From assembly GCA_019749875.1 (NCBI GenBank), contig JAIEPK010000479.1:7184-71183 (forward strand): a stretch of 64,000 bases of DNA, written 5' to 3'. Numbering within the stretch: position 1 is the first letter of the stretch; every line of letters begins with the position of its first letter. Source of the stretch: Candidatus Binatia bacterium. Its GTDB lineage: Bacteria; Desulfobacterota; Binatia; UBA12015. Below, one piece after another: positions 2,042 through 56,609 of the stretch. A model generated the notes under the pieces. That model did not search any database, was not told the origin of the DNA, and worked only from the letters and a program-made list of their open reading frames with translations. The position numbers and the translations under genes are program-made.

Positions 2042-2100
2042 GCACGGATGCGTGCCACGAATGTCGGCGCCCGACTTGAACGAACTTGCTATTTTTCCGC

Positions 2101-5282: not shown

Positions 5283-5322
5283 GCTCGCGGCGTCGCCAAC
5301 GGACTGCCTCTCCTGGGCGTCG

Positions 5323-6747: not shown

Positions 6748-7429
6748 GGCTTCCTCCGGCTCCCGCAGATCGAGCCGTAGGCGGATGCACCCCGCCGCCC
6801 CGAATTCCGGGAATCAACGCTGGGACATTCGCCGCGTAGCGCTCCCATTCGCTTCCGAACTCCTCACGCACTTCGCGCTCCTCGCGGCGGGCGAGCCGGA
6901 AATACATCAGCACCAGCACGGGAAACATGGCCAGCGTCAGGATGGTCGGCCACTGGAGCAGGAAACCGAGGAGCACTGCGACGAATCCGACGTACTGCGG
7001 ATGGCGAATCACCGAGTATGGGCCCGCGGTGGCGAGATGGCCTTGGCGCTGCGCCTCGTAGAGGACTCGCCAGGCCGATGCGACCAGCAGCAGGCCCGAC
7101 ACGATCAGAAGCATGCTCGCGATGTGGATCGGGTTCGAGTGCGGGTCGCCGGAGAGGCCGAGCAGGGACCACCAGAGGTGGCCGGCATCGTGAGAAAGGA
7201 AATCCGTCCCTGGGTAGCGGCGACCGAGCCATCCCGAAAGGAGGTAGATCGTCAGGGGAAAGCCGTACATCTCGGCGAACAGCGCGACGATGAAGGCTGC
7301 GAACGCCCCGAACGATCGCCAATCGCGCCTCGACGTCGGACGGGCAAAGCTGAATGTGAAGATCAAGAACACCAGCGAGTTGATGATCACCAAGCCCCAG
7401 AGCCCATAGGCGGGTACGTCGTGATTCAT
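6737..7429 (-). CDS. Isoprenylcysteine carboxyl methyltransferase (ICMT) family membrane protein
   Basis: Polytopic membrane protein with the ICMT/PEMT-type motif SVIRHPQYVG...EE..L...FG..W..Y. Overlaps the multicopper oxidase gene start by 11 nt, implying an operon. Confidence 0.75.
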   Translation of the reverse strand: MNHDVPAYGLWGLVIINSLVFLIFTFSFARPTSRRDWRSFGAFAAFIVALFAEMYGFPLTIYLLSGWLGRRYPGTDFLSHDAGHLWWSLLGLSGDPHSNPIHIASMLLIVSGLLLVASAWRVLYEAQRQGHLATAGPYSVIRHPQYVGFVAVLLGFLLQWPTILTLAMFPVLVLMYFRLARREEREVREEFGSEWERYAANVPALIPGIRGGGVHPPTARSAGAGGSHVS

Positions 7430-7900: not shown

Positions 7901-8896
7901 CTACTGATGTGGGCGCTCAAGCTCAGCGGGCGCGCCCTGAATTTCACGCCACTCTCGTTGTCCGGCCGGCGCATCCCCTCGGTGCGCGGCAGATGGAATC
8001 AGGTGGCCGAGCCGAGCCAGCGATTCGACGATTCGCTCCTCGCGTCCCCAGTCGCTCCAGTGCACACCGCGCACCGGGATTGCGGCGAGCCGCGACGGAA
8101 GCCGCTCGAACACCGCCTTCGAGAGCGAGCAGCTCGGCATGACGTCGTATGCGGCCCTGATCGTCGGTGCCTCGCCGGACGTCCCCAAGGCGCTCTCGAT
8201 GCGTTCGAATGTCCGGTGCAATCGCGGGACGGCCGCCCGAAAGAGCGCCCACAGGCTCGCGCCCCGTGCGACCGTCACCATCGTGCTCCAGAGATGACCG
8301 TCCTCGTACAGCCGAAGCGCGCACGCCGGTGGAGGCTTTTCCCAGAAGTTGGCGATCGGCAGCACGCAGCTCGAGCGATGTCGGCCGGCGCGCCGAACTT
8401 CGATCCATCCATACTCGGAATCGGGGCGGTCAGCCTCGACGCCGAGAAGCGACACCGTAGGTCGGCCACGGCGCGCCAGCCAGGCGCCGATCTCGACGTG
8501 CTGCATGAAACGTTCTTCCTCCTCGACGAAGTGATCCGATGGCAGCAGGACGACGCTCGCCTCGGGATCGGCATGAAGCACGTGGGCGAGCGGGAGGAGC
8601 GTTCCGGGGCCGGTTTCTCGATTCGCCGGCTGCACGATCACCGTGCCCGGAGCGCGAGCGGAAAGCTGCTCCCGAAAGATGTCCGCGTGGGACGCGTCGA
8701 CGACGGTCAGCACGCGCGCTGGCGGAATGAGGCGCTCCGCCCGTTGCCACGTCTGTTCGAGCATCGTCCGATCGCCGGTGATCGCACAGAACTGTTTGAT
8801 CGGATTCTCGTGCCCCAGCCGTTTCAGGAACGGCTGCAACCGTTGGCCGCTTCCACCGGCCAGGACGATTCCCCAGAGATCGCCCGTGTTCGTCAT
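7901..8896 (-). CDS. Mannose-1-phosphate guanylyltransferase-like sugar nucleotidyltransferase
   Basis: N-terminal GIVLAGGSGQRLQPF...KQF nucleotidyltransferase G-loop. Start taken at MTNTGDLWG, ATG at 8894-8896; the upstream part of the ORF is junk. Confidence 0.7.
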   Translation of the reverse strand: MTNTGDLWGIVLAGGSGQRLQPFLKRLGHENPIKQFCAITGDRTMLEQTWQRAERLIPPARVLTVVDASHADIFREQLSARAPGTVIVQPANRETGPGTLLPLAHVLHADPEASVVLLPSDHFVEEEERFMQHVEIGAWLARRGRPTVSLLGVEADRPDSEYGWIEVRRAGRHRSSCVLPIANFWEKPPPACALRLYEDGHLWSTMVTVARGASLWALFRAAVPRLHRTFERIESALGTSGEAPTIRAAYDVMPSCSLSKAVFERLPSRLAAIPVRGVHWSDWGREERIVESLARLGHLIPSAAHRGDAPAGQREWREIQGAPAELERPHQ

Positions 8897-9767: not shown

Positions 9768-10139
9768 TCACTTCACCTGCGCTGTCGCTGCCATCGCGCG
9801 ATATGCCGCAGCCATCTGTTCGTAGTTCGTGGCGAGGTTGCTGGCGTCCTTGGTGATCGACGCGCAGTGCTGGTCCATGTGATACTTCCCGATGGCTGCT
9901 CCACCCATCGATTTCAGGTTCTCACCCATCTTCGTGTGCATCGCGGCACGGCTCTTTTCCTCGGCCGCCATCACGTCGTACTTCTTCGCGATGGCCTCGT
10001 ATTCCGCAGCGGTCTTCGCCTGTGCGACCATTGCCGGGAGACTGTCCTCCTGGCCGGCGCCGGCACGGAATGCCACTGACGCAACTAGGAGCGCGACTCC
10101 CACCAAGATGGTGGCCATCCTGCTTCTGAATCGGATCAT
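9768..10139 (-). CDS. Small secreted hypothetical protein
   Basis: Start at MIRFRSRMATILVGVALLVASVAF, a signal peptide, ATG at 10137-10139. 123 aa, Ala/Lys/Met-rich. Confidence 0.45.
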   Translation of the reverse strand: MIRFRSRMATILVGVALLVASVAFRAGAGQEDSLPAMVAQAKTAAEYEAIAKKYDVMAAEEKSRAAMHTKMGENLKSMGGAAIGKYHMDQHCASITKDASNLATNYEQMAAAYRAMAATAQVK

Positions 10140-10264: not shown

Positions 10265-11011
10265 CTAGCTCGGTGCGCGCCTGGCATGGGCGATCTCCCA
10301 CAGGACAACTTCTCGCGACGTGCGCTCCGTTACGACGCTCCAATCCGTCTGCGATTCAATCCGCCGCCAAGGAGCATCGTCGACAGATACTGCCGCGATC
10401 TGATGCTCTTCGACCACGCGCCTGTAAGCGTCACCATAAGCAAACCCTGGACCGATCGCCACGTTGGCGTCGACGAATTCCGCCAAGGTCGCGCACGCGC
10501 GCCTTCCGAACTTGAACACTCCGAGCACGCTACGGCACTCCATTGCGAGCGGCGTAGGAACGCTCCCGATGGGCACGACGCGCTGATCCACGACGACGAC
10601 ATCTGCGGACGTCGCCGGCCCTTCGCGCGGATCGAATAAGGCGGCACTCTCGTACTCAAATTCAACGAGAATCTTCACCAGTGGGATCGGGAAGAGGATG
10701 CTCGTATCGAGAACTACGATGTCGTCGCACAACTGCGCTCGACCCGCGTACAGGGAGTGCGCGCCGCCCCGCTCGTGATCCGGGTTCATCGCAAGATCGA
10801 TCTCCAGCCTCGGGTTGAAGCGCCGGATATCCGCAACGACCTCCTCCGCACCGCACCCGACCACGCACGTCGCGAACCGAATCCCCGCGTACTGAACGGA
10901 CGTCAGCAGCCTCTCCAGCAGCGTCCTGCCGCGCACCTTCAACAGGCATGATGGCGTGAATCCAGGCGGTTGATGCTGCCAACGGCCGTCAGCGAGGACG
11001 ATCGCCCTCAT
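10265..11011 (-). CDS. Nucleotidyltransferase family protein (NTP_transferase/MobA-like)
   Basis: N-terminal MRAIVLADGR...LL nucleotidyltransferase fold motif. The ATG overlaps the TGA of the upstream GT39 gene (ATGA). Confidence 0.65.
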   Translation of the reverse strand: MRAIVLADGRWQHQPPGFTPSCLLKVRGRTLLERLLTSVQYAGIRFATCVVGCGAEEVVADIRRFNPRLEIDLAMNPDHERGGAHSLYAGRAQLCDDIVVLDTSILFPIPLVKILVEFEYESAALFDPREGPATSADVVVVDQRVVPIGSVPTPLAMECRSVLGVFKFGRRACATLAEFVDANVAIGPGFAYGDAYRRVVEEHQIAAVSVDDAPWRRIESQTDWSVVTERTSREVVLWEIAHARRAPS

Positions 11012-12840
11012 GAGCAATCCCCCTTGGTCGGGATTGCTTCGCCCTTGGACCCGAACGATGGACGGGCGACTGCGGGATCGCCATTGCGTCCTCGAGGCGC
11101 TGACGGCAGCTCGCACGCGTCACCAGCCTCGCATCCAGTAGAGCCTTCCCTGGCTGGGTCGAAGTTGACGAACACGACGCGCTCTGCGTCCCGCAGCAGA
11201 ACTCGCGGCTCGAGATTCAAGAGGGCGCCGAGCTCCTTCTCGAACCTTCGACTGGTTGCGATGAACACCCGCTGGTCCGACCTCCAGGCGTCGGCGATGC
11301 GGGTGGGGTCGCACCAGAAGAACTGCCGTCGGTCCGCGGCGAACCTCTGACCGAACCCGAGTTCGCCGTAGGTCATGGCCTGCACAGCACGAACCTGCGA
11401 ATAGAACGGCAGACCGTGAAGGAGTCGCCGGTACGAGATCACGAGATCGCCCGGGCGATGGAGCGCCTGGATCGCCCGACCGACGTCGCGCGACGTCTTC
11501 ACGACGCCGCGCGCGCCAAGAGAAAGGAAGAGGAAGAGTGCGGTACATGCGGCGACGGTGCCGACACCACGAAGCGACGATGGCGCGAATGACGAATCTC
11601 GAAATCGCGACCATCGGACCAGAGCAGCCGACCCGACCACGCCCGGTCCGCCTGCAGCGAAAAGAAGCGTCGTCGCAACCGTGAGGACGTCGGTGCGGTC
11701 ACGGCCGAGCACGTCGCTCAGAGGCCCCGCGAAGCTCCACCCGACGAACCCCGCGACGGCCAGTACGACCGACGCTGCGACCAGGCCCACGACACTGCGA
11801 TGAGTGGCTGCCGCGACAGAGTCCGTGCGATCCACCAAGTCCAGGCAACCTGCCGACAGGAGAGCAAGAGACGGGAAGGCCGGCAGAATGTACGCTGGCA
11901 GCTTCGCCCGAGCTACGGAAAAGAATACCAGGACCGCGAGCGCCCAAAGGAGAAGGAAGCCACGATCTTCGGAACGCAGCTTACGATACGACGCACGAAT
12001 CCCACCTCGCCACAGCACACCGGGAACGAATACCGTCCAGGGAAGAGCGCCTGCGAGCAAGACCGGGACGTAAAAGAACGGGCCTTCGGGATGCCCGACC
12101 GAAGCGGTCGAGAACCGCTCGAAATGCTGCTTCACGAAGAAGTACTCGACGAACTCGGGGTTCACCCAGGAGACGGCGATGAACCACGGAACAGCGATGA
12201 GCGTGAACGCCATGATCGGCGTCGGCCGGAGAAGACGCCGCAGAGCAGCCCAATCGCGCATCCCGACGAGGAAAAGAAGCGCGACGCCCCCCGGGAGCAC
12301 CAGCGCCACGAGGCCCTTGGCCAGCACGCCAAGTGCAGCGAACACCGCCGCGAGCGTAGGCCAGAGCAGCCCGCGCGGGTGCCGCCGTGCCCCCCAAAGC
12401 GCCGCCAACGTGGCCGTCATGCATGCCGTGAGCAGCATGTCGGTGGTGAGCGCCTGCGAGAAGAGGAAGAACAAGGGGCTGGTCGCAAGCATGATCGCCG
12501 CCATCAGGCCTGCACGCGGACCGAACATCGAACGACCGAGAACGAATGTGATGCAGACCGTCACCACGCCGGCCGCCGCCGGCACAATACGAGCAACACC
12601 CTCGCTCTGCCCGAAGACCTGAAACAGGGCGGCCGTCGACCAGTAGAGCAGTGGCGGCTTGTCGAAGTACTTGACGTAATGCAGGGTTGGCGTCAACCAG
12701 TCGCCGGTGACCGCCATCTCCCGTGCGATCTCGGCGTATCGTCCTTCGTCCGGATCCTGGAGAGGAAATCCACCGATGCGTGCGAAATACAGACCGAGAA
12801 GGAGCAGAAACAGCAGGATGGGCAACGCACGTGCACGCAT
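11008..12840 (-). CDS. GT39 family glycosyltransferase (ArnT/PMT-like polyprenyl-phosphate-sugar dependent transferase)
   Basis: About 12 TM helices. Conserved N-terminal loop motif QDPDEGRYAEIAREM and a YFDKPPL motif typical of ArnT/PMT. Confidence 0.85.
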   Translation of the reverse strand: MRARALPILLFLLLLGLYFARIGGFPLQDPDEGRYAEIAREMAVTGDWLTPTLHYVKYFDKPPLLYWSTAALFQVFGQSEGVARIVPAAAGVVTVCITFVLGRSMFGPRAGLMAAIMLATSPLFFLFSQALTTDMLLTACMTATLAALWGARRHPRGLLWPTLAAVFAALGVLAKGLVALVLPGGVALLFLVGMRDWAALRRLLRPTPIMAFTLIAVPWFIAVSWVNPEFVEYFFVKQHFERFSTASVGHPEGPFFYVPVLLAGALPWTVFVPGVLWRGGIRASYRKLRSEDRGFLLLWALAVLVFFSVARAKLPAYILPAFPSLALLSAGCLDLVDRTDSVAAATHRSVVGLVAASVVLAVAGFVGWSFAGPLSDVLGRDRTDVLTVATTLLFAAGGPGVVGSAALVRWSRFRDSSFAPSSLRGVGTVAACTALFLFLSLGARGVVKTSRDVGRAIQALHRPGDLVISYRRLLHGLPFYSQVRAVQAMTYGELGFGQRFAADRRQFFWCDPTRIADAWRSDQRVFIATSRRFEKELGALLNLEPRVLLRDAERVVFVNFDPAREGSTGCEAGDACELPSAPRGRNGDPAVARPSFGSKGEAIPTKGDCS

Positions 12841-12847
12841 CGCGGAC

Positions 12848-13855
12848 CTACGAGCCGGCGACAGCGACAGGCTCGCCCACCGCCGACGACGTGGATTCGG
12901 AATCCCACGCGACCAGGTACGCAGGACGAGCCCTCACCCCTTCGAGCACTTGCCCCAGGTAGATTCCGAGAACGCCCAGAACGACGAGATGCCCGCCGGA
13001 AAACAGCGACACTGCGGAGATGACGAACAGACCGGAGCGCGGCAGCCAGCCATCGAGACCGCCTGCCAGAGCGTAGACACCCAACGCGGCGCCGAACAAG
13101 CACTCTACCACGCCAAGAACCGCGGGGACATGGAGCGGCCACTTCGCGCTGGACGTGACCCCGCGAAGGGCCAGCGCAGCAAGCTTCCCGTAGGTAAACT
13201 TCGATCGCCCAGCAAAGCGCGCGGGCCTCGCGTAAGCGACCGTGGCCTGCCGAAATCCCGCCCACGACACGAGGCCACGAAGATACTTTTCCGTTTCCGG
13301 AAGGGAATTCAGAACATCCAGGACACGCCGATCGAGTAGCCTGTAATCACCAACATCCACCGCAACAGGCTGGTCGGAGATACCGACAAGGACACGATAG
13401 TACAGCTTGATCAGGAACTTCCGCAGCCACCACTCTCCCTGACGCGCAACACGCCGCGCCGCCACGACATCGTAGCCTGCGTGCCACTCGGCGACGAGTT
13501 GCGGAATCAGCTCGGGCGGATCCTGCAGGTCCGCATCCATCGTTACGACCGCAGCGCCGTCCGCATGCTCGATACCGGCCATGATCGCCGCTTGGTGACC
13601 GAAGTTCCGGCTCAACGCCAGGATGCGAATACCGCCCTCCTTCGCGAGAGCACGAAGGAGCGCGAGCGACCGATCGGTAGATCCGTCATCGACGTAGATG
13701 ACTTCGTATGCGAGTCCCGTACGATCGAGTGTATCGATCAAGCGCCGATGCAGGATTTCGAGAGTCCCTTCCTCATTGTGAATGGGAAGTACCACAGAGA
13801 GATCCAACGGTTGGTCGCTCCGCAAGCTCCGTGCTGGCCGCCCCGGACTTCTCAT
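12848..13855 (-). CDS. GT2 family polyprenyl-phosphate glycosyltransferase (DPM1/ArnC-like)
   Basis: LSVVLPIHNEE, YEVIYVDDGSTD, VTMDADLQDPP motifs plus C-terminal TM helices. Confidence 0.85.
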   Translation of the reverse strand: MRSPGRPARSLRSDQPLDLSVVLPIHNEEGTLEILHRRLIDTLDRTGLAYEVIYVDDGSTDRSLALLRALAKEGGIRILALSRNFGHQAAIMAGIEHADGAAVVTMDADLQDPPELIPQLVAEWHAGYDVVAARRVARQGEWWLRKFLIKLYYRVLVGISDQPVAVDVGDYRLLDRRVLDVLNSLPETEKYLRGLVSWAGFRQATVAYARPARFAGRSKFTYGKLAALALRGVTSSAKWPLHVPAVLGVVECLFGAALGVYALAGGLDGWLPRSGLFVISAVSLFSGGHLVVLGVLGIYLGQVLEGVRARPAYLVAWDSESTSSAVGEPVAVAGS

Positions 13856-14649
13856 CGACGCTCCAGTTTCGATGCTCGGCTAGCCGTCGCGAGCGCAACG
13901 GCTTCGCGCAGCTCCAGGTCGGCGATGCGCGGGGCGATCGACTTCACCGCCATGGCGAGGTCTTCCGACGTGTCGATCTCCATCCACGGCTCTCCGGCCG
14001 CCGACAGAAAGCCGACGTCGTGGCTGTCGAAGACCGGTTGGTACGCAACCTCGTAGTCCGCACGGGAGCAACGGGCTCCGATTGCTGCAGAGACGCTGTC
14101 GCGGAGAGTTCGCGCCGCGCTCCGGTCGAACTTGGCCAGACCGAGCGATTCGCCGACCAGATCCCAGCTTCCCTGTTCGACCTCGCGCCCCACGCTCAAC
14201 ACCCGGTCACCGCGCGTCATCAGCATCATCTCCTCGCCTCTCGATGTCGACTGCGGATCGAGCAGGCACGCATTGGGGAGACTGCTCTGAACGAGCCGCG
14301 ACACGAGAAACAACGGGAGCAGGACATCCGCGTCGAGGATCAGGACGTCGTCATCGAGAAAGTCCCGCGCGGCTCCGAGGGAGAAGATGCTGCCAGAGCT
14401 GTAGCGGTCGTTGACCACCAAACGGATCGACAACCGAAAGCACACCGCATCGAGTGCTTGACGGATCTGCCCACGGAGGTGGCCGACGACGCAGACCAGG
14501 CGATCGACACCAGCCAGCTCGAGAGCCATCACCAACCGGATCAGCGTGCAACCACCCGCCAAGGGTAGGGGCAGCAGGCACTTCGGGTGCTCGGCGGTCA
14601 ATGGCCAGAGCCTGCGTCCGATTCCTGCAGTCAACAAGATCGCCGTCAT
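13852..14649 (-). CDS. Sugar-phosphate nucleotidyltransferase (NTP_transf_3-like)
   Basis: N-terminal MTAILLTAGIGRRLWPLT G-loop. The ATG overlaps the upstream cytochrome c TGA (ATGA) and its own stop overlaps the GT2 ATG. Confidence 0.7.
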   Translation of the reverse strand: MTAILLTAGIGRRLWPLTAEHPKCLLPLPLAGGCTLIRLVMALELAGVDRLVCVVGHLRGQIRQALDAVCFRLSIRLVVNDRYSSGSIFSLGAARDFLDDDVLILDADVLLPLFLVSRLVQSSLPNACLLDPQSTSRGEEMMLMTRGDRVLSVGREVEQGSWDLVGESLGLAKFDRSAARTLRDSVSAAIGARCSRADYEVAYQPVFDSHDVGFLSAAGEPWMEIDTSEDLAMAVKSIAPRIADLELREAVALATASRASKLERR

Positions 14650-15314
14650 GAACCCGCGCCGTGGTCACCGTGGTCGTGGTCGTCGTCGTGGTCCGAATGG
14701 GCGTGAGCACCCTCGTCGTGATGGTGCGCCCCGCTGTCACCGTCGTGCTGGTGACCACTCTGCGGCATCAGCAAGCGCACCTGCTCAATGTCTTGTCGCG
14801 TGAATTCCGGCATCCGGCGAATCAGGCGCACGAGCTTCCAACTGTCCGTACCTTCGCCAGTCTCACCGTGACTCCACGCAGGCATGCCGGTGAATCGAAT
14901 GCCGTTCTCGATGATGAAGAACAGCTCGCCGTCGGAAAGTCGTTGCGTTTCGGCGGCACGCATGTCCGGAACCTTCGGGTAGAGATTCTCTCCGACCTGC
15001 GTCCGACCGCTGCCGTCGGCGCCGTGGCAGCCGGCGCAGTGGTCGGCATAGTGGGCCCGTGCGTCGGCAATGACGTCCGTCGACTCCTGGACCGGGTTCG
15101 GCGTCAGCCGGGCACCAGCCGGGATCGATGCCACCCGCAACCGGCGTGCGATGAATGCCTCCAGCGCGGACGGACGCTCGCGCGCACTGAAGCCATCCGA
15201 CCGGAGCAGGACCATCGTGACGAAGAGCAGTGCGCCACCCAGCGCCAGCGCTCCAACGACACCGAGCCCGCCGACAACTGTGCGCCTCCAACCGGTGTTC
15301 GCGTTGGCGATCAT
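14646..15314 (-). CDS. Monoheme c-type cytochrome with His/Asp-rich C-terminal tail
   Basis: CAGCHG heme motif and an N-terminal TM/signal. C-terminal tail HQHDGDSGAHHHDEGAHAHSDHDDDHDHGDHG. Start at MIANANTGW, ATG at 15312-15314. Confidence 0.7.
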   Translation of the reverse strand: MIANANTGWRRTVVGGLGVVGALALGGALLFVTMVLLRSDGFSARERPSALEAFIARRLRVASIPAGARLTPNPVQESTDVIADARAHYADHCAGCHGADGSGRTQVGENLYPKVPDMRAAETQRLSDGELFFIIENGIRFTGMPAWSHGETGEGTDSWKLVRLIRRMPEFTRQDIEQVRLLMPQSGHQHDGDSGAHHHDEGAHAHSDHDDDHDHGDHGAGS

Positions 15315-15316
15315 CT

Positions 15317-16780
15317 CTAGACCTCGATTCCGTCGCGTCGCAGGTCCGCCGCGCCGGCGACACCGGCAACGGTTCCCTTCGGATGCTCGTACCAGCCGGG
15401 ATCCTCGTCGTAGGTGTCGAGCCGATCCCGCACCTTGAGAACGTTGACGAGGCCACCCATGGAGATGAATGCGAAGGGGCCCCGCCCCCCCATCATCGGG
15501 ATGCTGTTCGGCGGAACCGCCATGTGCATCGAATCCCCCATGCCGCTCGTTCCCATGGTCATGTACTGCGGCAGCAGCGGTGTGATCTTGCGGTCGAGGC
15601 CATCGGCGTCGACCCCGAGCATGTTCGGGAAGTCGTGCCCCATCTGATTCATGACGTGATGGGTCATGTGACAATGCAGGGCCCAGTCACCGGGGGCATC
15701 GGCGATGAACTCGATCTCGCGCGTCTGCCCCACTGCTACGAGCACGGTCGTCTCGGGCCATTGCGCCGACAACGGAATCTGCTCCCCGTCGGTCGCGGTC
15801 ACGCGGAAGTGGACGCCGTGCAGGTGCATCGGGTGATGGTCCATCGCACTCAGGTTCCCGAAGCGGATTCGTACCTTGTCGTTGGTCTTCACGATCAGCG
15901 GCCACGTTGCGGGAAAGACCTTGCCGTTCATGGTGAGCACGTTGAAGCCCTGGTCCTTGATGGGGTTCGGCCGCGAGGTACCGACGCGGACGAAGAACTC
16001 ACCGGTCAGGATCGAGAAATCGCGGTCGACGTGCTGCTCCGGGGCGGGATGCCGCGGATGGACGACCAGCATCCCGGTCAGCCCCATCGCCATCTGCGTC
16101 ATCTCGTCGTGATGCGAGTGGAACATGAACGTCCCGTGCTGGCGGAACGTCCACTCGTAGAGAAACGTCTCACCGGGAGCGATCAGCGGCTGATTGAGCC
16201 CGCCCACCCCGTCCATTCCGTTCGGGAGGTAGACGCCGTGCCAGTGCACGCTGGTCTCCGCCGGGAGACGGTTCGTCACGTAGATGCGGACGCGCTCGCC
16301 CTCGACCGCCTCGATCGTGAGGCCGGCGACCTGACCGTTGAACGCCCAGCACGTGGTCTTCAGCCCGGGTGCGAACTCGTGCTCGATCTCGCCGAGCACG
16401 AGATGGAAGACCTTCGCGCCGTCGACGATCTTGAATGGCAGTGTGGCGCCGTTCGGCACCACGACGGGTTGGTAGTCCTTGCCCGGCAAACCCGGCGGCA
16501 GCGGCGCGACGTCCAGAGGGCCGCCGCTGTAGCTCTTCTCCCACCAATCGAGGTTGGTCTGTTTGATCCCCCCACCGGCAGGCGCGGGCGGCGGGCTCGC
16601 CGCGTCGGCCGGCGCGGGCGGCGTACTCCCCGCGGCGCCGGGCGCGGACGGCGTACTTTCCGGGTCGGCGGGCGCCGCGGGCTCGGCCGCACCGGCCCGC
16701 GCCGCCATCACACCGACGAGCGAGCCTCCGACCGCCGCGGCGCCCGAGAGCAACACCGTTCGTCGCGTAGCTTTCTTCAT
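15317..16780 (-). CDS. Multicopper oxidase with Tat signal, Pro/Ala-rich linker and Met-rich segment
   Basis: RRTVLLSGAAAVG Tat signal. Copper-binding motifs HWHG, HSHHDEMTQMAMG, HPMHLHGVHF, HCHMTHHVMNQM. Met-rich MTMGTSGMGDSMHM segment. Confidence 0.85.
   Translation of the reverse strand: MKKATRRTVLLSGAAAVGGSLVGVMAARAGAAEPAAPADPESTPSAPGAAGSTPPAPADAASPPPAPAGGGIKQTNLDWWEKSYSGGPLDVAPLPPGLPGKDYQPVVVPNGATLPFKIVDGAKVFHLVLGEIEHEFAPGLKTTCWAFNGQVAGLTIEAVEGERVRIYVTNRLPAETSVHWHGVYLPNGMDGVGGLNQPLIAPGETFLYEWTFRQHGTFMFHSHHDEMTQMAMGLTGMLVVHPRHPAPEQHVDRDFSILTGEFFVRVGTSRPNPIKDQGFNVLTMNGKVFPATWPLIVKTNDKVRIRFGNLSAMDHHPMHLHGVHFRVTATDGEQIPLSAQWPETTVLVAVGQTREIEFIADAPGDWALHCHMTHHVMNQMGHDFPNMLGVDADGLDRKITPLLPQYMTMGTSGMGDSMHMAVPPNSIPMMGGRGPFAFISMGGLVNVLKVRDRLDTYDEDPGWYEHPKGTVAGVAGAADLRRDGIEV
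16565..16690 (-). repeat. Imperfect ~30-bp tandem repeats (3-4 units) inside the multicopper oxidase gene encoding a Pro/Ala-rich linker
   Basis: The units ggcgcgggcggcgggctcgccgcgtcggcc, ggcgcgggcggcgtactccccgcggcgccg and ggcgcggacggcgtactttccgggtcggcg encode PAPAD(A/S)xSxP repeats. Confidence 0.5.
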
Positions 16781-16783
16781 GAC

Positions 16784-18238
16784 TCAACGACCTCCACCTT
16801 GGATCGTGGGGAATGGGAACCGGCGCGCAGCCTCGAGCGGAGCCGTCGGCTGCACGAGCGCATCGGACGGAGGCACCCGTCCGGCGAGGATCATCGACAT
16901 GTCGGCACGCGCGAGCCAGTACTCGCGCAGGCTGTCGACGTAGCGCGCCGCCGACTCGATCTGCTGCTCCTTGGTCCGCAGCACGTCGATCGGGCTGATC
17001 TGCATCGCGTTGTATTGGAGCATCGCCTGCTGGACCACCTGCGCTCGGACCGGAAGCTGGACGTCGCGGTAGTACAGGGAGCGCTCCCCATATCCCTGGA
17101 CGCGGTCGCGCGCTGCTCTGGCCAACGCTCGAATTCGCACCGCCAGGGCGTATCGCGCATCCAAAGCGCGCTGCAGCTCTGCTTGCGCGCGCGCGGCGCG
17201 AGCCTGCCCCTGATCGAAGATCGGAATCGGGATCAGAAGAGACGGACCCGGCTCCCACTCGGGCGCGTCGCGATCTCCGCGCGCACCCACGAGGATTTCC
17301 GGAAAGAGGCCACTCGTGCGATCGAGGCCGAGCTGCTCGCCGAGAGCGACGATGCGGCTCGCGTCCGCCTTGAGATCGAGGCTGGATTCGATGGCACGAG
17401 CTTCGACGCGGTCCAGGTCCATCGGCTGCTCCGGAGGATCGGACATTCGCGAAGCCTTCAGCTTCCAGCCCGCCTCCGTTCCCCACAGACCGAGGATCGC
17501 GTTCAGCTGCTCGCGGCTCGTCCGCACGTCGACTTCCGCGAGTCGAACGTCGAGCTTCGATTCCTCTGCGAGCGCCTGCTCGCTGGAGAGGTCCAGCTGC
17601 GTGATGTTTCCTGCCTCGCGAAGGCGACGGGCGAAGTCGAACGCGGCCATGGTCGATGCGGCGATCTGCCGACGCATCTCGAGCATCTGCTCGTCGGCCT
17701 GGTGGCGGTAGAATGCCGTCTCGGCGCGCCATGCGAGGTCGAGGACCGCGCTCGCGACGCGCAGCTGCGTTTCTTCCAGAGCCGCAGCGGTGACCCGCAT
17801 GCGAAGCGGCGTGTAGAGAAAATCGATCACGTCCATGGCCACGCCGAGTGCGACGTCCACGCCGCCGCCTCCCACCGGCAACCCGACACCGGCGTCGAGG
17901 ACCGGGTTGTGCAGCAGGCTCGACTGCACGAGGTCTGCCTGGGCCACACCGAGATCCGCGTAGACGGCACGGAGATCGCGGCTGTTCATCAGCGAGATCT
18001 TGACCGCCCCCTCGGCATCGAGGCCGCCGTCGAGCAATGAGCGCACGGCATCCACCGTTGCCGGGTCGTCGCCGGCGCCGGGAGTCCATGAAACCTCCTG
18101 CGTCGTGCGCTCCTTCACGATCGACGCAACGGTGGGAAACCCGCCTTGTGGATCGACGGCAACGGCCGTGCATCCCCCGAGCGCCAAGGCGAGCAGAGCC
18201 AGGAGCCCGGCTAGAGACTCAGGTCGGCGGCGCATCAC
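16784..18238 (-). CDS. Outer membrane efflux lipoprotein, TolC/OprM/CusC family
   Basis: Lipobox LALGGC after the signal, then two repeated TolC-type coiled-coil halves. Confidence 0.8.
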   Translation of the reverse strand: MMRRRPESLAGLLALLALALGGCTAVAVDPQGGFPTVASIVKERTTQEVSWTPGAGDDPATVDAVRSLLDGGLDAEGAVKISLMNSRDLRAVYADLGVAQADLVQSSLLHNPVLDAGVGLPVGGGGVDVALGVAMDVIDFLYTPLRMRVTAAALEETQLRVASAVLDLAWRAETAFYRHQADEQMLEMRRQIAASTMAAFDFARRLREAGNITQLDLSSEQALAEESKLDVRLAEVDVRTSREQLNAILGLWGTEAGWKLKASRMSDPPEQPMDLDRVEARAIESSLDLKADASRIVALGEQLGLDRTSGLFPEILVGARGDRDAPEWEPGPSLLIPIPIFDQGQARAARAQAELQRALDARYALAVRIRALARAARDRVQGYGERSLYYRDVQLPVRAQVVQQAMLQYNAMQISPIDVLRTKEQQIESAARYVDSLREYWLARADMSMILAGRVPPSDALVQPTAPLEAARRFPFPTIQGGGR

Positions 18239-18552
18239 TGACCTCCATGCATGTGGTGCTCGTGACCCCCATGGCCTGACATCGCGTCGGCGGCGGAAGG
18301 GGTCGCGGCTTGAGTCGGCTGCGCTGACCCACGCTTGAGAATGTTTGACGATTCGAGCGATGGCGCGGCGACAGCCTCAGGGTTCGCCGGATTGGTCAGC
18401 GCAATCGGAGGCGGTTGATAAGCCGCGCATCCCGTTCCCAGGACTGAAACAGCCATCGCCATCAGAGCGAAGCTGGATCGCACACCATTCGTCGTCGACC
18501 ATCGGCCGATTCGTCGATGCGCGCGGACATTCCGCGCTGCGTTCGGGGCCAT
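18235..18552 (-). CDS. Small putative lipoprotein with C-terminal His/Met metal-binding motif (start uncertain)
   Basis: C-terminus ADAMSGHGGHEHHMHGGQ. Possible signal MAMAVSVLGTGC. The stop overlaps the downstream outer-membrane-factor ATG (ATGA). Which in-frame start is used is unclear. Confidence 0.4.
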   Translation of the reverse strand: MAPNAARNVRAHRRIGRWSTTNGVRSSFALMAMAVSVLGTGCAAYQPPPIALTNPANPEAVAAPSLESSNILKRGSAQPTQAATPSAADAMSGHGGHEHHMHGGQ

Positions 18553-18862
18553 CGTCAGCGAAATCCGCCACCATGGCATCTTGTCGCCCTCCACCGATTC
18601 AAAGATGAACATCCGCCAGGCGGAACAGCCTGACCCAATTTCAACAACGAGCTCCGCGCATGCTAGAGTGGACGACGACCCCGAGGGTCGATCGTCTCGC
18701 CCGGGCACCACGTGTACGAACGCGTGGGCGCGTCGACTGGAGGACGCACTGGCGAGCTCCGCGTTACAGGCGCAAGGCGCACCTCCGGGGACGGAAGTCT
18801 GCTTGCGCTCGACGCTCGCGCGGTCGTGGCGCGCGGTCACCTAGCCCAATGGGCGGGACCGC

Positions 18863-19312
18863 TCAGACGAGGATCGTGCGGAATGTGAGATGCGAGCGCA
18901 GGCCAGGAAACCGGCTACGCTGCCGACCTTCGTCACGTGCGCGGCCCGGAAGGGGATCGCCGGGCCCGCCGAACACTGTCAGGCCCGACGCCTTCACACG
19001 CAGCGGAAACGCGGGCCCAGAGGTCATCGTCGACGCAACGGTGGCCTTCAGAGAAGGGAGCGCGACGATCGCTGCCATAGGACCGCAGCAAGCAGGCGAC
19101 TGCTCGTTCTGCGGCTGGCGATCAGCTGCCGAAGAGCCGCCATGCTTCGGACATTCCGGCGCAGCGACCGTCCGGGTCCGATCGGGACCATGGTCGGCGA
19201 TCTGGCAAAGATTCCGAGAGTGTTGTGCCGCCGCGACGACGAGCGCCAAGGCCAGAACGCTCGCGGTCGGCATGAGAACGCGCCTGAGCGGTCCTGTCGC
19301 AAACATTTTCAT
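18863..19312 (-). CDS. Hypothetical secreted Cys-containing protein
   Basis: [29 protein letters not shown] signal-like start, ATG at 19310-19312. Divergent from the 19491 gene. Weak support. Confidence 0.3.
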
Positions 19313-19490
19313 CCAGGAGAGCCCTCTGCATAGCTCAATACGCGGCGCGCGTCCAACCGTAACACCAGAGCTCGTCGCCGGGCCGCCGATTGTGCGAGTG
19401 AGCAAACACGACGGGCCGTCGACCACCGCCTGCACATCGAGCGAAAGCCGAGACTCGCAACCCCACGCGCCGATCGAGTATGGTCTGCAC

Positions 19491-20777
19491 ATGGAAGAGG
19501 CCCAGTTCGTCACCCTCCTCGACCGGTGGAAGCAGGATGCCGGGGGCACCTACAGATCGTGGTTCCTGTGGGACGAGCGCCTCAAGAACTTCCGCTCCAT
19601 CCGTGCAGGGATCGCGGAGGTCGTGCGGGAGATCGAGGCAGGGACCTTCGGGAACCAGTACAAGGGCTCGTCACTGGAGACCATCGTCGGGGCAATCGCG
19701 GAGCAGCGACAGATCTTCAAGGGCGCCGACCACGCGTTTCTCTGGAAGCCGAAGCTTCGCATCCCCGACATCTACGAGAGCGTCGACAACCAGCGTGCCT
19801 TCGGCCGCTTCCTCGCCGCTTGCGCGTGCTGTGACGACGAGGCGGGCGTCGTGGGTGCAATCCGACGCCTGAGCGATTGCAGGATCAAGGGTCTCGGTCC
19901 GGCAGCGGCAAACCTGCTCTACTTCCTGCATCCGACCCTCGTGCCGCCCTTCAACACCGCGATCGTGAAGGGTTACAACGCCCTCACGGGAGCGCGCGTC
20001 AAGCTCGGAAGCTGGGACGAATATCTGGCCATGCGGGCCGGCGTTCTCCGTCTCAACGCGGAACATCGCAGGCTGCTCTCGAACGACCTGGGTGCCGTCG
20101 CTGGCTTTCTCTTCGACATCGGCACCGGGCGCTATGCGCTGCCGCCGAGAAGCAACGACGCAGCCGCGCTCGCTGCATGGAACGATGACCTGACCCGAGT
20201 GCGCGACGAGACGGCGGCAGATCGCAAGCGGCTGGAGCGGGAGCGCGAAGGCGACGCGACGCATACCCTGATCCAGGGCTGGCTGCGGGACCTCGGAACG
20301 GCGCTGGGCTTCGAAGTTCACATCGCCGTCAATGACCGGAGTCGAGAATACGCCGGCGGACGACTCGGTGACCGCTGCTGCGAGCTGCCGACGTCCCTTT
20401 CCGAACGGCCTGGCATCGATGCAATTCGCCTGATCGACGTCCTCTGGCTCCATACCGGCCCGGACAGCAAGGGCGAGCACAGCATCGCAGCCGCGTTCGA
20501 GGTCGAGCACACGACGTCGATCTATTCCGGCATCGTGCGGCTGCTCGATCTCGCCCTGGGTGCGCCGAGTGGATCCGCGACCGGTCTCTATTTGGTGGCG
20601 CCCGATGCACGTAGGGAAGACGTCTCCCTGCAGCTCTCGCGTCCCGCATTCACCCGTGTGCGGGACCTCCGAGTACGATTCCTGCCGTACAGCGCATTGC
20701 GGGAGAACCGGGATGCGATGGCGAGGTTCGGGAGTGGGCTGAAGGCGATCGAGGCGGTGGCGCATACGCTGACGTAG
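19491..20777 (+). CDS. Restriction-endonuclease-like (PD-(D/E)xK-type) hypothetical protein, solitary
   Basis: 428 aa from the ATG at 19491; the upstream part of the long ORF is Arg-rich junk. The C-terminal region has an IDVLWL ... AAFEVEHTT pattern resembling a D...ExE/K nuclease core, as in BamHI-type ExE variants. No methyltransferase neighbour. Confidence 0.55.
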
Positions 20778-20883: not shown

Positions 20884-22311
20884 ATGGAAACCATCATGCT
20901 GACCCGCCACGACCCGACGCCGATGTTCGCAGGAAACACCCTTCGCAGCCTTCCCGGTCGACGAAGCTCGGTGCACCTCGCAATCGCCACCCTGATTGCA
21001 GTCGGGTTCACGTCTTTCACCGGATGTGCACGACGCCCAGAGGTGAAGAGCTTCGAGATCATCGCGGCGCCGACGACCGTTCCGCTTTCGAGCGGCAGGA
21101 CGATTCAGGTGTGGGCCTACAATGGTCAGGTGCCCGGGCCTACACTGCGGATCCGCCTGGGCGACACGTTGCGCGTGACGTTCACGAACCGCCTGCCGCA
21201 GCCGACCACCATCCATTGGCACGGGGTGCGGGTACCCAACGCGATGGATGGCGTTCCGGGCGTCACGCAGCGGCCGGTCGAGCCCGGTCAGACCTTCGTC
21301 TACGAGTTCACGCCGAAGGACGCGGGCACGTTCTGGTTCCATCCGCACGTCCGTGCCAGTGAGCAGGTCGAGCGCGGTCTGTATGGCGTACTCATCGTCG
21401 ACGATCCCGAGCCACAGCCGTTCGCACGCGACGAGCTATGGGTGATCGACGACCTCCTGTTGGATCCGAGCGGCGAAATCGCACCCGAGTTCAACACGCG
21501 GCACGACCTCGCGCACGACGGGCGTTGGGGCAACTTCGTGGTCGTCAACGGCAGATCTCGCCCCGAGCTTCGTGCGGCGCCGGGAGAGCGGTTGCGTTTG
21601 CGACTCCTGAACGTGGCCAACGGCCGCATCTTTGTACCGGACTTCGGTGCTCTTCAACCGCAGATCATTGCGGTCGATGGCCTCTACGTGACCGCTCCGG
21701 TCGACGCTCGAGGCTTCGAGCTGGCACCCGGAAATCGGGTCGACCTCGATCTCGTCGTACCTGCCGCGCTCGCCGGTAGCCGAGTCTCGGTAGTTGATCG
21801 CTTCACGCGTCAAGCGATCGGCCTGGCCGACATCCTCGTGTCGCCAGATGCGGCGACGGATCCTCCGCGCTTCTCCATCCCTGTGGGTTCGCGCATGCCC
21901 GATGCCCCGTCCACCGGGTCCGCCCCGCCGTCGCTCGACCTTCGCTTGAACGCGGAGCCCGGAGGTCCGTTCGGGATCGCCTGGACGATCAACGGCACTG
22001 CGATGAACCCGCTCGACCACGCATCGGGCAGTGAGCACTATGCGCTTCCGTTGAACGAGCCGAGTCGGGTTCGATTCGTCAACGAGTCCTATCGGCTCCA
22101 TCCGATGCATCTTCACGGAATGTTCTTCCGGGTGGTGTCACGAAACGGGCGTCCGATCGACGAGCCGTTTACGCGAGACACGGTCCTCGTTCATCCGAAG
22201 GAGACGGTCGAAGTCGTGACGCTTCCAACCGAGCCGGGTCTGTGGATGGCTCACTGCCACGTCCTGGAGCACGCGGAAGCCGGCATGATGACGTTACTTG
22301 ATGTTCACTGA
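20884..22311 (+). CDS. Multicopper oxidase (lipoprotein-like signal)
   Basis: Copper-binding motifs HWHGVRVPNAMDG, HPHV, HPMHLHG, HCHVLEHAEAGMM. N-terminal TM/lipobox-like FTGC. Confidence 0.8.
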   Translation: METIMLTRHDPTPMFAGNTLRSLPGRRSSVHLAIATLIAVGFTSFTGCARRPEVKSFEIIAAPTTVPLSSGRTIQVWAYNGQVPGPTLRIRLGDTLRVTFTNRLPQPTTIHWHGVRVPNAMDGVPGVTQRPVEPGQTFVYEFTPKDAGTFWFHPHVRASEQVERGLYGVLIVDDPEPQPFARDELWVIDDLLLDPSGEIAPEFNTRHDLAHDGRWGNFVVVNGRSRPELRAAPGERLRLRLLNVANGRIFVPDFGALQPQIIAVDGLYVTAPVDARGFELAPGNRVDLDLVVPAALAGSRVSVVDRFTRQAIGLADILVSPDAATDPPRFSIPVGSRMPDAPSTGSAPPSLDLRLNAEPGGPFGIAWTINGTAMNPLDHASGSEHYALPLNEPSRVRFVNESYRLHPMHLHGMFFRVVSRNGRPIDEPFTRDTVLVHPKETVEVVTLPTEPGLWMAHCHVLEHAEAGMMTLLDVH

Positions 22312-23081: not shown

Positions 23082-24152
23082 TCAGCTCATCCGCTGCGCT
23101 TGAAGGCCGTAGATGTAGGCGAGCACCTCGGCGACGGCCCGATACAAGCCGTACGGGATTTCGCTGCCTACCTTGACGGTACGGTAGAGCGCGCGCGCGA
23201 GGGTGCGACGCTCGACGATCGGCACGCCGCCCGCGCGCGCCAGCTGCTTGATGCGCTCGGCGACCTCGTCGACGCCCTTCGCGACCACGCACGGTGCACC
23301 CTGCTCGTCGCCGCGATAGCGCAACGCCACAGCGAAATGCGTCGGGTTGGTGATCACCACGTCGGCGGTCGCGACCTCGCTCAGCATGCGGTTGTTGTTA
23401 AAGTCGCGGTATGCGCGCTTCATCCGCTGGCGGAGCTTGGGATCGCCCTCGGATTGGCGCATCTCGTCCTTGATCTCCTGCCGCGACATGCGGAGGCTCT
23501 GCTGGTGCGTGCGCCGTTGCCAGATGTAGTCGAACGCCGCCAACACAGCGAGCGTCGAGCCCACCCATAGCATCATTCGCACCAGCTCGGCCCCGCCTAC
23601 GGCGAGAATTTCGCTCGCCGACAATAACCCGACAGACCGTAGGCGATCTAGCGTCGACAACACCACCTTCCACGCCACCCACGACACCAGTACAATCCTG
23701 ACGATATTCTTGATTAGCTCGACGAAGCCGCGCAGCGAGAAGATGCGCTTCAGGCCGGTGCTCGGCGAGATGCGCGATCCCTTCGGGAGGAGCAGCTGCG
23801 GATAGAGCCCGACGCCGACCTGAGCGAGGTTGCTTGCGACGCCGGCGAGCATCATCGCGAGGATCACCGGCAGGGTCGCGGAGACGATCACGGCGCCCGC
23901 GTCGTAGAATGCCTGTCCCACCTGCGCCGGTGTCAGGTCAGCACGCGCGACCTGCATCAGGCCGTGCCGCATCGCCTCGCGCAGATCGCGCGACGTCGTG
24001 CCACCCCACTGAGACATCGCGATCACCGCGGTAAGCAGCACCGTCGCCGATGTGACATCCGACGAACGCGCTACCTGGCCCTCCTCGCGAGCTTTCTCGG
24101 CGCGCCGTGGTGTAGGCTCTTCGGTTTTGTCGGAGAGATCTTCTTCCGCCAT
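23082..24152 (-). CDS. flhB: Flagellar/T3SS export apparatus switch protein FlhB (YscU/EscU family)
   Basis: N-terminal MAEEDLSDKTEEPTPRRAEKAREEGQVARS, four TM helices, NPTH autocleavage motif in VVITNPTHFAVAL. ATG at 24150-24152. No other flagellar genes in the window. Confidence 0.85.
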   Translation of the reverse strand: MAEEDLSDKTEEPTPRRAEKAREEGQVARSSDVTSATVLLTAVIAMSQWGGTTSRDLREAMRHGLMQVARADLTPAQVGQAFYDAGAVIVSATLPVILAMMLAGVASNLAQVGVGLYPQLLLPKGSRISPSTGLKRIFSLRGFVELIKNIVRIVLVSWVAWKVVLSTLDRLRSVGLLSASEILAVGGAELVRMMLWVGSTLAVLAAFDYIWQRRTHQQSLRMSRQEIKDEMRQSEGDPKLRQRMKRAYRDFNNNRMLSEVATADVVITNPTHFAVALRYRGDEQGAPCVVAKGVDEVAERIKQLARAGGVPIVERRTLARALYRTVKVGSEIPYGLYRAVAEVLAYIYGLQAQRMS

Positions 24153-25968: not shown

Positions 25969-28383
<2,415 letters not shown>

Positions 28384-38738: not shown

Positions 38739-38748
38739 GCTCGTGCCT

Positions 38749-40095: not shown

Positions 40096-40109
40096 CAGCG
40101 CGCGACCAC

Positions 40110-56606: not shown

Positions 56607-56609
56607 GGA

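Follow-up and report, generated by a model that had tools for sequence, protein, structure and literature searches.

We analysed a 64,000-nucleotide stretch of DNA (hereafter the window) from an uncultured Candidatus Binatia bacterium (GenBank assembly GCA_019749875.1, contig JAIEPK010000479.1, positions 7,184 to 71,183 of the forward strand) in which copper-handling genes and a polyprenyl-phosphate-dependent glycosylation pair occupy a single gene row. Eight open reading frames (ORFs), located from their coordinates and by reading the sequence directly, run head to tail on the minus strand from 18552 down to 10265. In that order they encode a small lipoprotein, an outer-membrane factor (OEP), a multicopper oxidase (MCO), a cytochrome c, a nucleotidyltransferase (NT1), a GT2 glycosyltransferase, a GT-C glycosyltransferase and a second nucleotidyltransferase (NT2) (Table 1). 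Window proteins were assigned to families by Pfam and NCBIfam profile searches, with PDB sequence searches for selected proteins; the G+C content of the window is ~65% throughout. The original prediction, made from the letters of this DNA, had placed the same eight ORFs on the minus strand, and at family level, by Pfam and NCBIfam, its assignments are confirmed. Its central claim, that a copper set shares one row with a glycosylation pair, is borne out as well, and we find this coupling to be conserved in relatives and under purifying selection.

The genes of the row are tightly packed. The lipoprotein and OEP genes overlap by 4 nt, the cytochrome c and MCO genes are separated by 2 nt (the cytochrome c ATG lies at 15314), the OEP and MCO genes by 3 nt and the GT2 and GT-C genes by 7 nt, while the cytochrome c/NT1, NT1/GT2 and GT-C/NT2 junctions are ATGA overlaps. 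The cytochrome c/NT1 overlap is the point at which the copper and glycosylation modules meet. Overlapping or nearly abutting junctions had been predicted, and only the motif at 18235/18238 needs correction: it reads GTGA, with an ATG directly after, rather than ATGA. The first real gap, of 125 nt, lies 3' of NT2. An internal promoter or terminator between the modules had been raised as evidence for two separate units; pattern scans found no sigma-70-like promoter site, and terminator-like hairpins occurred at chance level (7 versus 6.9 expected) with none at a gene boundary or at the module boundary. Matches to the extracytoplasmic-function (ECF)-type promoter pattern GGAAC-N15-18-CGTC were likewise at chance level with none upstream of the operon, and an Rfam search of the whole window gave no matches. 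The eight genes form one compact row that is probably co-translated.

Table 1. Genes of the operon, followed by neighbouring features of the window.
Feature	Coordinates	Strand	Evidence
Small lipoprotein, His/Met-rich C-terminal tail HGGHEHHMHGGQ	18235..18552	-	Lipobox LGTGC; sequence read directly
Outer-membrane factor (OEP, TolC/NodT-type)	16784..18238	-	PF02321 E = 9e-25; own lipobox LALGGC
Multicopper oxidase (MCO)	15317..16780	-	Cu-oxidase_3 and Cu-oxidase_2 (Pfam); copper_res_A 155 bits, below cutoff
Membrane-anchored mono-haem class I cytochrome c, His/Asp-rich tail	14646..15314	-	CAGCH; PF13442 E = 3e-10
NT1, small nucleotidyltransferase of the PntC/LicC/IPCT/MurU group	13852..14649	-	Intact G-x-G-x-R...P-K loop
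GtrB-like polyprenyl-phosphate hexosyltransferase, GT2 with C-terminal membrane anchor	12848..13855	-	PF00535 E = 1e-34
ArnT-family GT-C glycosyltransferase (CAZy GT83-type)	11008..12840	-	NF009784 ArnT 207 bits, below cutoff 567
NT2, NT1 paralogue	10265..11011	-	31% identity, BLASTP E = 4e-22 to NT1
Secreted 123-aa Met/His-containing helical protein	9768..10139	-	No Pfam family
ManC-like nucleotidyltransferase	7901..8896	-	PF00483; TIGR01479 E = 3e-28, below cutoff
ICMT/PEMT-family methyltransferase	6737-7429	-	Best NCBIfam match LmtA (Leptospira lipid A 1-phosphate methyltransferase), weak, 43 bits
AraC-family regulator and OlsE-like fatty-acid hydroxylase pair	1136-2919	-	OlsE E = 1e-46, below cutoff (ornithine-lipid hydroxylase-like)
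P1B ATPase with YHS and HMBD domains	25969-28383		
Alpha-glucan phosphorylase with N-terminal YHS metal-binding domain	33067-34959	-	TIGR02094 561 bits, above cutoff
CusA, CusB, CusC	35592-41561		

The identity of the GT-C enzyme is critical for reading the operon. It had been called an ArnT/PMT-like GT39, a label that stems from matches to the Pfam PMT and PMT_2 models; the ArnT half of that name stands and the PMT half does not. The best NCBIfam model for the protein is NF009784 ArnT, and its sole relative in the PDB at E <= 1e-3 is the ArnT of Cupriavidus metallidurans (CmArnT, 5ezm, E = 5e-56), with no PMT chain among the matches at that threshold. Over ~95% of its length it is 44-46% identical to the ArnT proteins of canonical Binatia arn operons, which adjoin nuo genes, and its C-terminal periplasmic domain also aligns with ArnT (Arnt_C E = 3e-4, below the Pfam cutoff). 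The PF02366 and PF13231 matches cover only residues 10-234, the N-terminal half, which includes a first-loop Asp-Glu motif, and the PMT_4TMC and MIR domains are absent from the Pfam results. The nearest named homologues are from Binatia, and an exact look-up of the protein itself returned no record. A placing by phylogeny in the ArnT or PMT clade had been proposed as a check, and a neighbour-joining (NJ) tree of 74 GT-C homologues, without bootstrap support values, puts the enzyme inside ArnT-like sequences. In this tree the sequences from copper contexts form a single clade of exactly 11. The sister of this clade, P0074, is an isolated ArnT-like gene that has no arn or copper genes around it and is uninformative.

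The GT-C enzyme keeps key residues of ArnT. Residues D31, K61, D134, R242 and Y317 correspond to CmArnT D55, K85, D158, R270 and Y345, which we take from the structure to be catalytic or to bind undecaprenyl phosphate (Und-P), so that all five are kept; this mapping comes from a HMMER alignment, the numbering of the deposited chain being offset by +3. At the positions that presumably form the Zn site, E84 is replaced by D60 and H265 by K237, while H267 is kept as H239; the position of H265 is an Arg in the canonical Binatia ArnTs too. We found no ArnA, ArnB, ArnD, ArnE or ArnF gene near the window enzyme and no arnA, arnB or arnD homologue in any locus of the copper clade. Because ArnA, ArnB and ArnD are absent, the donor sugar of the GT2/GT-C pair is almost certainly not 4-amino-4-deoxy-L-arabinose (Ara4N). 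By these criteria the predicted GT-C protein is an ArnT-family (GT83-type) paralogue, and is neither a PMT nor an orthologue of the Ara4N transferase.

The partner enzyme had been described as a DPM1/ArnC-like GT2. It is indeed a polyprenyl-phosphate glycosyltransferase by class, but it is closest to neither ArnC nor DPMS: the best PDB match is Synechocystis GtrB (5ekp, E = 5e-74, residues 12-316), followed by ArnC (E = 3e-43) and DPMS (E = 2e-19). Among NCBIfam models it scores higher against PgfS (223 bits) than against ArnC (165 bits), and with the ArnC proteins of canonical Binatia arn operons it shares just 33% identity. A hydrophobic C-terminus is visible in the sequence. The protein is thus a predicted GtrB-like Und-P-hexose synthase, and the window holds no second GT2/GT-C pair. 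Taken together with the GT-C enzyme, we consider it likely that the module carries out periplasmic glycosylation that depends on an Und-P-linked sugar.

The coupling is retained in related copper islands. L001, a near-identical strain, has the same gene order, and the order OEP-MCO-cytochrome c-NT1-GT2-GT-C-NT2 is kept in L002 (GCA_021155115.1), L008 and L177; the 4-nt cytochrome c/NT1 overlap recurs in all four. Identity to the window in these L002-type loci is 78-84% for OEP and MCO, ~51% for the cytochrome c, 54-62% for NT1, GT2 and GT-C and ~41% for NT2 (OEP is 78-80% identical in L002 and L008, MCO 81-84% in L002, L008 and L175, and cytochrome c homologues at 46-55% occur in L002, L008, L175 and L009). 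In L175 the module is contiguous but reordered (MCO-NT1-DUF5666-cytochrome c-PF03706 flippase-like-methyltransferase-GT2-GT-C-NT2), with a 123-aa secreted protein and an alpha-glucan phosphorylase just downstream. A third architecture is found in L006, the far end of the L177-type island, where the order is P1B-ATPase::MCO fusion-GT2-GT-C-VKOR/DsbA. The fusion is one uninterrupted ORF (3104-7177, plus strand) that joins a P1B ATPase (HMA, E1-E2 and hydrolase domains) to a complete MCO, and its MCO part shares 62% identity with the window MCO encoded at 20884-22311. The L177-type island carries two GT2/GT-C pairs, each adjoining an MCO, and every recovered context of the copper GT-C clade (4 lineages, 3 architectures) has an MCO beside GT2/GT-C.

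Codon-level comparison of the window with L002 gave a synonymous divergence (dS) of 1.0-2.0 for all seven genes, with ratios of nonsynonymous to synonymous divergence (dN/dS) of 0.10-0.48; for the accessory half, which comprises the cytochrome c and the glycosylation genes, dN/dS is 0.17-0.48. The dN values are 0.10-0.15 for OEP and MCO and 0.35-0.66 for the others, so that the module evolves with a dN 3-4x that of OEP and MCO. A recombination scar or mosaic at the MCO/cytochrome c boundary, suspected from an identity to L002 of 78-84% for OEP and MCO against 42-60% for the other genes, was considered and rejected, as dS is ~1-2 for all seven genes. Because dS is uniform, the step in identity reflects different constraint rather than different age. 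The operon has diverged as a unit, and purifying selection, although weaker there, acts on its accessory half too. We are highly confident that the operon is real and under selection.

Two scans placed the module in a wider setting. In a scan of GTDB genomes with the GT-C clade alignment, the best 80 loci were mostly canonical arnB-arnC-arnA-arnD-arnT operons, and none of these 80 ArnT-family loci had MCO, cytochrome c or NT1 within 10 kb as checked by tblastn. No copper-clade GT-C was found among the matches listed for GTDB species representatives, the listed proteins being ArnT-family members of <=46% identity. With the MCO alignment, a metagenome scan recovered 80 loci with an MCO of 58-72% identity; 67 of them pair this MCO with an OEP, which lies upstream in 44 and downstream in 23. 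NT1, GT2, GT-C and NT2 were found in 0/80 of these loci, a set in which sequence continues downstream of the MCO for >=1.5 kb in 48 cases and for >=3 kb in 29. The copper island L009/L010, which is more distant, encodes MCO (55%), cytochrome c (46%), NT1 (50%) and ManC-like (41%) homologues with no GT2 or GT-C within 10 kb. These data show that the (lipoprotein)-OEP-MCO core is widespread in many soil and sediment bacteria and that the cytochrome c gene, like the glycosylation genes, is a lineage-specific addition. The original prediction held that absence of the glycosyltransferase (GT) genes from related copper loci would mean a chance juxtaposition. They are indeed absent from the 80 OEP-MCO loci, but in every lineage of their own clade they are retained beside the MCO. 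Given that adjacency to the MCO is kept in all clade contexts, chance does not follow from GT-less relatives, and the coupling is selected.

The two nucleotidyltransferases are the least canonical part of the module. NT1 had been taken for a sugar-1-phosphate nucleotidyltransferase; it has the intact loop of a nucleotidyltransferase, but the sugar-1-phosphate part is too specific, its closest relatives being PntC, LicC, IPCT and MurU. PDB sequence matches are led by the phosphonate cytidylyltransferase PntC (6pd1, E = 6e-11), followed by LicC (5e-7) and IPCT (3e-6). An AlphaFold model (pLDDT 95.3) has its best fold match in PntC (TM 0.81), then LicC, MurU and IPCT, then RmlA, and the best NCBIfam match is the Arch_glmU N-terminal domain (2.5e-17). 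Homologues at 36-40% identity are fused to a CDP-alcohol phosphatidyltransferase or, in the case of the 40% one, lie within a phosphoenolpyruvate (PEP)-mutase/2-aminoethylphosphonate (AEP) cluster. Since the GT-less island L009/L010 carries an NT1 homologue, NT1 may serve another, copper-related role of its own. NT1 of the window is 86% identical to its L001 counterpart (13852-14649 versus L001 1467-2264), whereas neighbouring genes are 93-100% identical, and other contigs carry an NT1 with 100% identity; the pattern resembles a local allelic replacement or recombination within the operon. The 90%-identity cluster of NT1 includes MBY0278753.1, a protein recorded under Candidatus Binatia bacterium.

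NT2, the predicted second nucleotidyltransferase, is a paralogue of NT1 with a degenerate nucleotide loop (ADGRWQH...PS). In alignment the loop is degenerate in L002 as well, L175 retains an intact one, and in L008 the gene is split. NT2 has no PDB sequence match and the highest dN/dS of the operon (0.48), and it is probably non-catalytic or decaying. The ManC-like gene, which had been put just upstream, is real but lies 1.4 kb downstream of the operon; it is co-directional, with three gaps of 125-236 nt between. It is possible that it supplies a nucleoside-diphosphate sugar, and its 41% homologue stands in the GT-less island L009/L010.

On the copper side, the start codon of the lipoprotein is uncertain (18552 or 18579). 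The protein is rich in Pro, Ala, Ser and Thr and has no Pfam family match; from signal peptide to tail it aligns weakly with the gene upstream of OEP in L002 (E = 0.001), and tblastn matches lie upstream of OEP in 7/80 of the related OEP-MCO loci. No RND-type or MFP-type partner of OEP is encoded within the operon. The MCO has a Tat-type signal (TRRTVL) followed by a 40-residue Ala/Pro/Ser/Thr-rich linker, the Cu-binding His motifs HWHG, HSHH, HPMHLHG and HCHMTHH, and a Met-rich C-terminal region. At 487 aa it is short and without a separate middle domain (TIGR01480 155 bits, cutoff 479), and since only Cu-oxidase_3 and Cu-oxidase_2 are clearly separable it looks like a two-domain enzyme. In alignment the MCO linkers of L002 and L008 are shorter and Pro/Glu/Ser/Thr-rich, and those of GT-less relatives differ in composition; linker composition was considered as a glycosylation signal and set aside as too variable among all relatives to decide. 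The 123-aa secreted protein that follows NT2 has homologues in L001 (98%), L175 (65%) and both L009 and L010 (32%), each near NT1 or NT2, and, recurring as it does beside the module, it may be part of this system.

The operon lies within a large copper island with three MCOs, the two further ones at 5323-6747 and 20884-22311. Besides the features of Table 1, the island has genes for a multihaem cytochrome, an FAD/NAD/2Fe-2S reductase, a Rieske protein, cytochrome b-c, DUF2933 and DUF2934, and its sugar genes are the ManC-like nucleotidyltransferase, a GH57 and the YHS::alpha-glucan phosphorylase fusion. This fusion could be a copper-gated supply of glucose-1-phosphate (Glc-1-P), and in L175 a phosphorylase with 50% identity to it is encoded ~2.4 kb from the GT module. 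The AraC/OlsE-like pair, ~8 kb from the operon in the window, is found directly 3' of the GT module in L002 (12883-14284), L008 (14391-16089) and L177 (12872-14309), and is a second candidate membrane-lipid modification travelling with the copper island. The ICMT/PEMT-family methyltransferase overlaps its DUF2933 and MCO neighbours and presumably belongs to the same family as CzcN of the Cupriavidus metal-resistance operons. Ahead of the operon, the L002-type islands carry genes for an ECF sigma factor, a LOG-like/YHS protein and a beta-CASP metallo-beta-lactamase RNase-like protein (L002 2843-4063, L008 5007-5933, L177 2797-4092), the last with aCPSF1/Cas14-like matches below cutoffs; the window has a homologue of the sigma factor (52% identical) at a distance (47871-48404, minus strand).

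Several other features of the island were noted in passing. The ~940-nt region upstream of the operon (18553-19490) lacks convincing repeats, promoter-like sites and family matches, and its codon usage in the frame examined does not look like that of a coding region. Beyond it, a type II restriction-endonuclease-like gene (19491-20777, plus strand; PADLOC REase_II E = 9e-10) diverges from the operon. Mobility genes comprise integrase and transposase genes at 50-54 kb and an IS66 fragment at ~25 kb, and at the island edge the integrase genes adjoin an anti-phage defence pair (54087-57818, minus strand) made up of the AAA ATPase IetA (E = 1e-74) and the subtilase IetS (E = 2e-40). An orphan FlhB gene occurs in the window (23082-24242, minus strand), FliQ and FliE genes occur in L009 (7040-7687), and flgB stands beside the gtr locus of a Cupriavidus plasmid (L174 3798-4220). 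Orphan flagellar or type III secretion system export genes thus recur, oddly, in metal-resistance islands across phyla.

We hypothesize that the operon links copper stress to the periplasmic glycosylation of an envelope lipid, and put the probability of this whole chain at roughly one half. Copper stress would induce the operon, and the Tat-exported oxidase, the OEP with the His-tailed lipoprotein and the cytochrome c would, judging from their families and context, handle periplasmic copper, the oxidase and efflux components dealing with Cu(I). The GtrB-like GT2 would load a hexose from a nucleotide sugar onto Und-P at the cytoplasmic face, and after the lipid-linked sugar had been flipped to the periplasmic face, the ArnT paralogue, with its catalytic and Und-P-binding residues intact, would transfer the sugar to an envelope acceptor. 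NT1 may supply an activated precursor, NT2 being degenerating or non-catalytic. The acceptor would most probably be lipid A, the lipopolysaccharide (LPS) core or another anionic envelope lipid, because over its full length the GT-C enzyme is closely paralogous to the lipid A ArnT of its own phylum, and because of the OlsE-like hydroxylase beside the module, the ICMT/LmtA-like methyltransferase and the published precedents. Less copper would then bind to and enter the cell, its anionic surface being masked or reshaped. A periplasmic protein or the envelope had been named as the target at the outset, and the genomic context leans to an envelope lipid.

Several observations weigh against this reading. 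The relatives of NT1 that have been characterised act on phosphonate (PntC), phosphocholine (LicC), MurNAc-1-phosphate (MurU) and inositol-1-phosphate (IPCT), and are not the hexose-1-phosphate enzymes that a GtrB-like partner would need, and the NT1 homologue of L009/L010 occurs without the GT pair. The decay of NT2 and the higher dN of the module mark a constraint weaker than that on the copper core, and the absence of the module from the 80 metagenomic OEP-MCO loci means that it is no general requirement of the oxidase. The window encodes no flippase (GtrA, ArnE/F or PF03706), a PF03706/HpnL-like flippase-like gene being found inside the module of L175, and pattern scans identified no promoter or regulator site for the operon. 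Further, the OlsE and LmtA matches fall below curated cutoffs, and likeness to ArnT is only a prior for the identity of the acceptor.

If the ArnT paralogue had switched acceptor, it could instead O-glycosylate the co-encoded MCO linker, lipoprotein and cytochrome c, for instance to counter copper-driven oxidation or proteolysis. The composition of the linker and the lipoprotein would fit this, the GT genes are tied to the MCO in three architectures, with the L006 pair standing between the ATPase::MCO fusion and a VKOR/DsbA protein-folding gene, and PgfS, the model against which GT2 scores best, is named for a streptococcal protein-glycosylation system. However, the GT-C enzyme is ArnT-type over its full length, lacks PMT_4TMC and MIR and has no PMT structure as a relative at E <= 1e-3; linkers vary in all related MCOs and are weak evidence; the neighbouring OlsE-like and ICMT/LmtA-like genes point to lipids; and we know of no ArnT-subfamily enzyme that glycosylates proteins. 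We therefore regard protein glycosylation as rather unlikely. The sugar might also go, as in phage-type Gtr systems, to another glycoconjugate (O-antigen, capsule or periplasmic glucan) or to a copper-binding surface glycan, fed by the Glc-1-P of the island phosphorylase, the GH57 and the ManC-like enzyme. That GT2 is closest to GtrB, the maker of Und-P-glucose, speaks for such a product, as do the sugar genes of the island, the homologous phosphorylase near the L175 module and the framing of C. metallidurans gtrMAB as LPS glucosylation (PMC2864759). The Gtr serotype-converting GT-C enzymes are, however, not ArnT-like, whereas the window enzyme is nearest to a lipid A transferase; the sugar genes lie 5-20 kb from the operon and are absent from the available flanks of L002 and L008; and no polymerase or export genes were seen. 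A different glycan is accordingly unlikely in our estimation.

A more sceptical view is that a mobile copper island carries the glycosylation genes as passengers, with incidental co-transcription and no functional coupling. The integrase, the transposase and the IS66 fragments of the island agree with this, as do the lack of the GT module in 80/80 related OEP-MCO loci, the degenerating NT2, the raised dN of the module and the mosaic between the window and L001 at NT1 (86% versus 93-100% in its neighbours). Against it stand the adjacency to the MCO in all clade contexts despite rearrangement and synonymous saturation, a dN/dS <0.5 for every gene, the conserved 4-nt overlaps that suit translational coupling, the island type with two GT2/GT-C pairs each beside an MCO, and the independent parallel in Cupriavidus. 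This makes the passenger explanation very improbable. Finally, the ArnT paralogue might be a dedicated modifier of the copper island, one that O-glycosylates the co-encoded copper proteins or installs a non-canonical group activated by the PntC/LicC-type NT1. We think this quite improbable, but if it were true, the new acceptor or donor would mean that Gram-negative bacteria modify their envelope or proteins under copper stress in a way not known before.

Our preferred reading, glycosylation of an envelope lipid under copper stress, suggests that remodelling of the cell surface is part of copper defence in this Binatia bacterium. A role of surface glycosylation in heavy-metal resistance has been suggested since the gtr loci of plasmid pMOL30 were described, and here the link is as tight as genomics allows: the arrangement is conserved past the saturation of synonymous sites and a single clade has rebuilt it in three architectures. 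It opens the question of what an ArnT paralogue does once uncoupled from Ara4N synthesis, and the compact four-gene cassette NT1-GT2-GT-C-NT2 could be moved into a tractable host. Enzymes of lipid A-modifying families, which are relevant to polymyxin resistance, can evidently ride metal-resistance islands, and this bears on co-selection by copper.

Several known systems share parts of this arrangement. As in the Pmt/Ppm1 (GT39) systems, the window has PMT/PMT_2 matches on the N-terminal half of its GT-C enzyme, a polyprenyl-phosphate-sugar synthase as its partner and a ManC-like gene nearby; unlike Pmt, the enzyme lacks PMT_4TMC and MIR and falls inside ArnT-like sequences, and its GT2 is only weakly similar to DPMS. 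The Arn pathway (PmrHFIJKLM), which modifies lipid A with Ara4N, shares the two-step logic, with a GT2 that makes an Und-P-sugar, a GT-C enzyme that transfers it in the periplasm and full-length ArnT homology, but its synthase is ArnC, whereas the window has a GtrB-like GT2, a partly changed Zn site and no ArnA/B/D/E/F nearby. Three-component periplasmic glycosylation is known from the GtrA/GtrB/Gtr-type and CsbB/GtcA/YfhO systems and, for lipid A hexosamine, from LgmABC of Bordetella and FlmF/FlmK of Francisella. These likewise combine a synthase of the GtrB/ArnC family with a GT-C enzyme that acts outside the cytoplasmic membrane, and the L175 module adds a flippase-like protein to the resemblance. 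In contrast to them, the window and L002 have no recognisable flippase, two PntC/LicC-like nucleotidyltransferases and a coupling to copper-oxidase genes.

Metal-responsive remodelling of lipid A offers a further parallel. In Salmonella, PmrAB responds to Fe3+/Al3+ with lipid A remodelling. In Pseudomonas aeruginosa, ColRS senses Cu/Zn and controls arnB and eptA (PMC13524251). ColRS-type remodelling, like the window, ties metal stress to ArnT-type masking of lipid A phosphates; its link is regulatory and between unlinked genes, whereas that of the window is physical, within the same operon as a copper oxidase.

The closest precedent is plasmid pMOL30 of C. metallidurans CH34, on which gtrM2-gtrA2-gtrB2 lie between silDCBA and the cop cluster in island CMGI-30b (PMC2864759, PMC7563307), so the original prediction went too far in supposing that such an arrangement had not been described. 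The gtr loci of C. metallidurans are reported to be induced by heavy metals and have been proposed to take part in modifying LPS or the envelope (PMC2864759, PMC7563307); related remarks have been made on the ArnT copies in strain BS1 (PMC7019866). Like the window, the pMOL30 locus places a PMT_2/ArnT-like GT-C enzyme and a GtrB-like GT2 within a copper/silver resistance island, GtrM2 being 36% identical over 517 aa to the window GT-C and GtrB2 41% over 311 aa to the window GT2. Given that this similarity is no higher than that to ordinary ArnTs, it points to parallel recruitment rather than orthology. The pMOL30 genes form a separate three-gene unit in the order GT-C-GtrA-GT2, with a GtrA flippase and a SAM methyltransferase upstream, and unlike those of the window they are not fused into an oxidase operon and come without LicC/PntC-like nucleotidyltransferases and without a cytochrome c. 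The methyltransferase of L175 was compared with that of pMOL30, and the homology was not convincing. What sets the Binatia operon apart is the translationally coupled fusion to an oxidase and outer-membrane factor, the pairing of an ArnT paralogue with a GtrB-like synthase, the two PntC/LicC-like nucleotidyltransferases and the dedicated cytochrome c.

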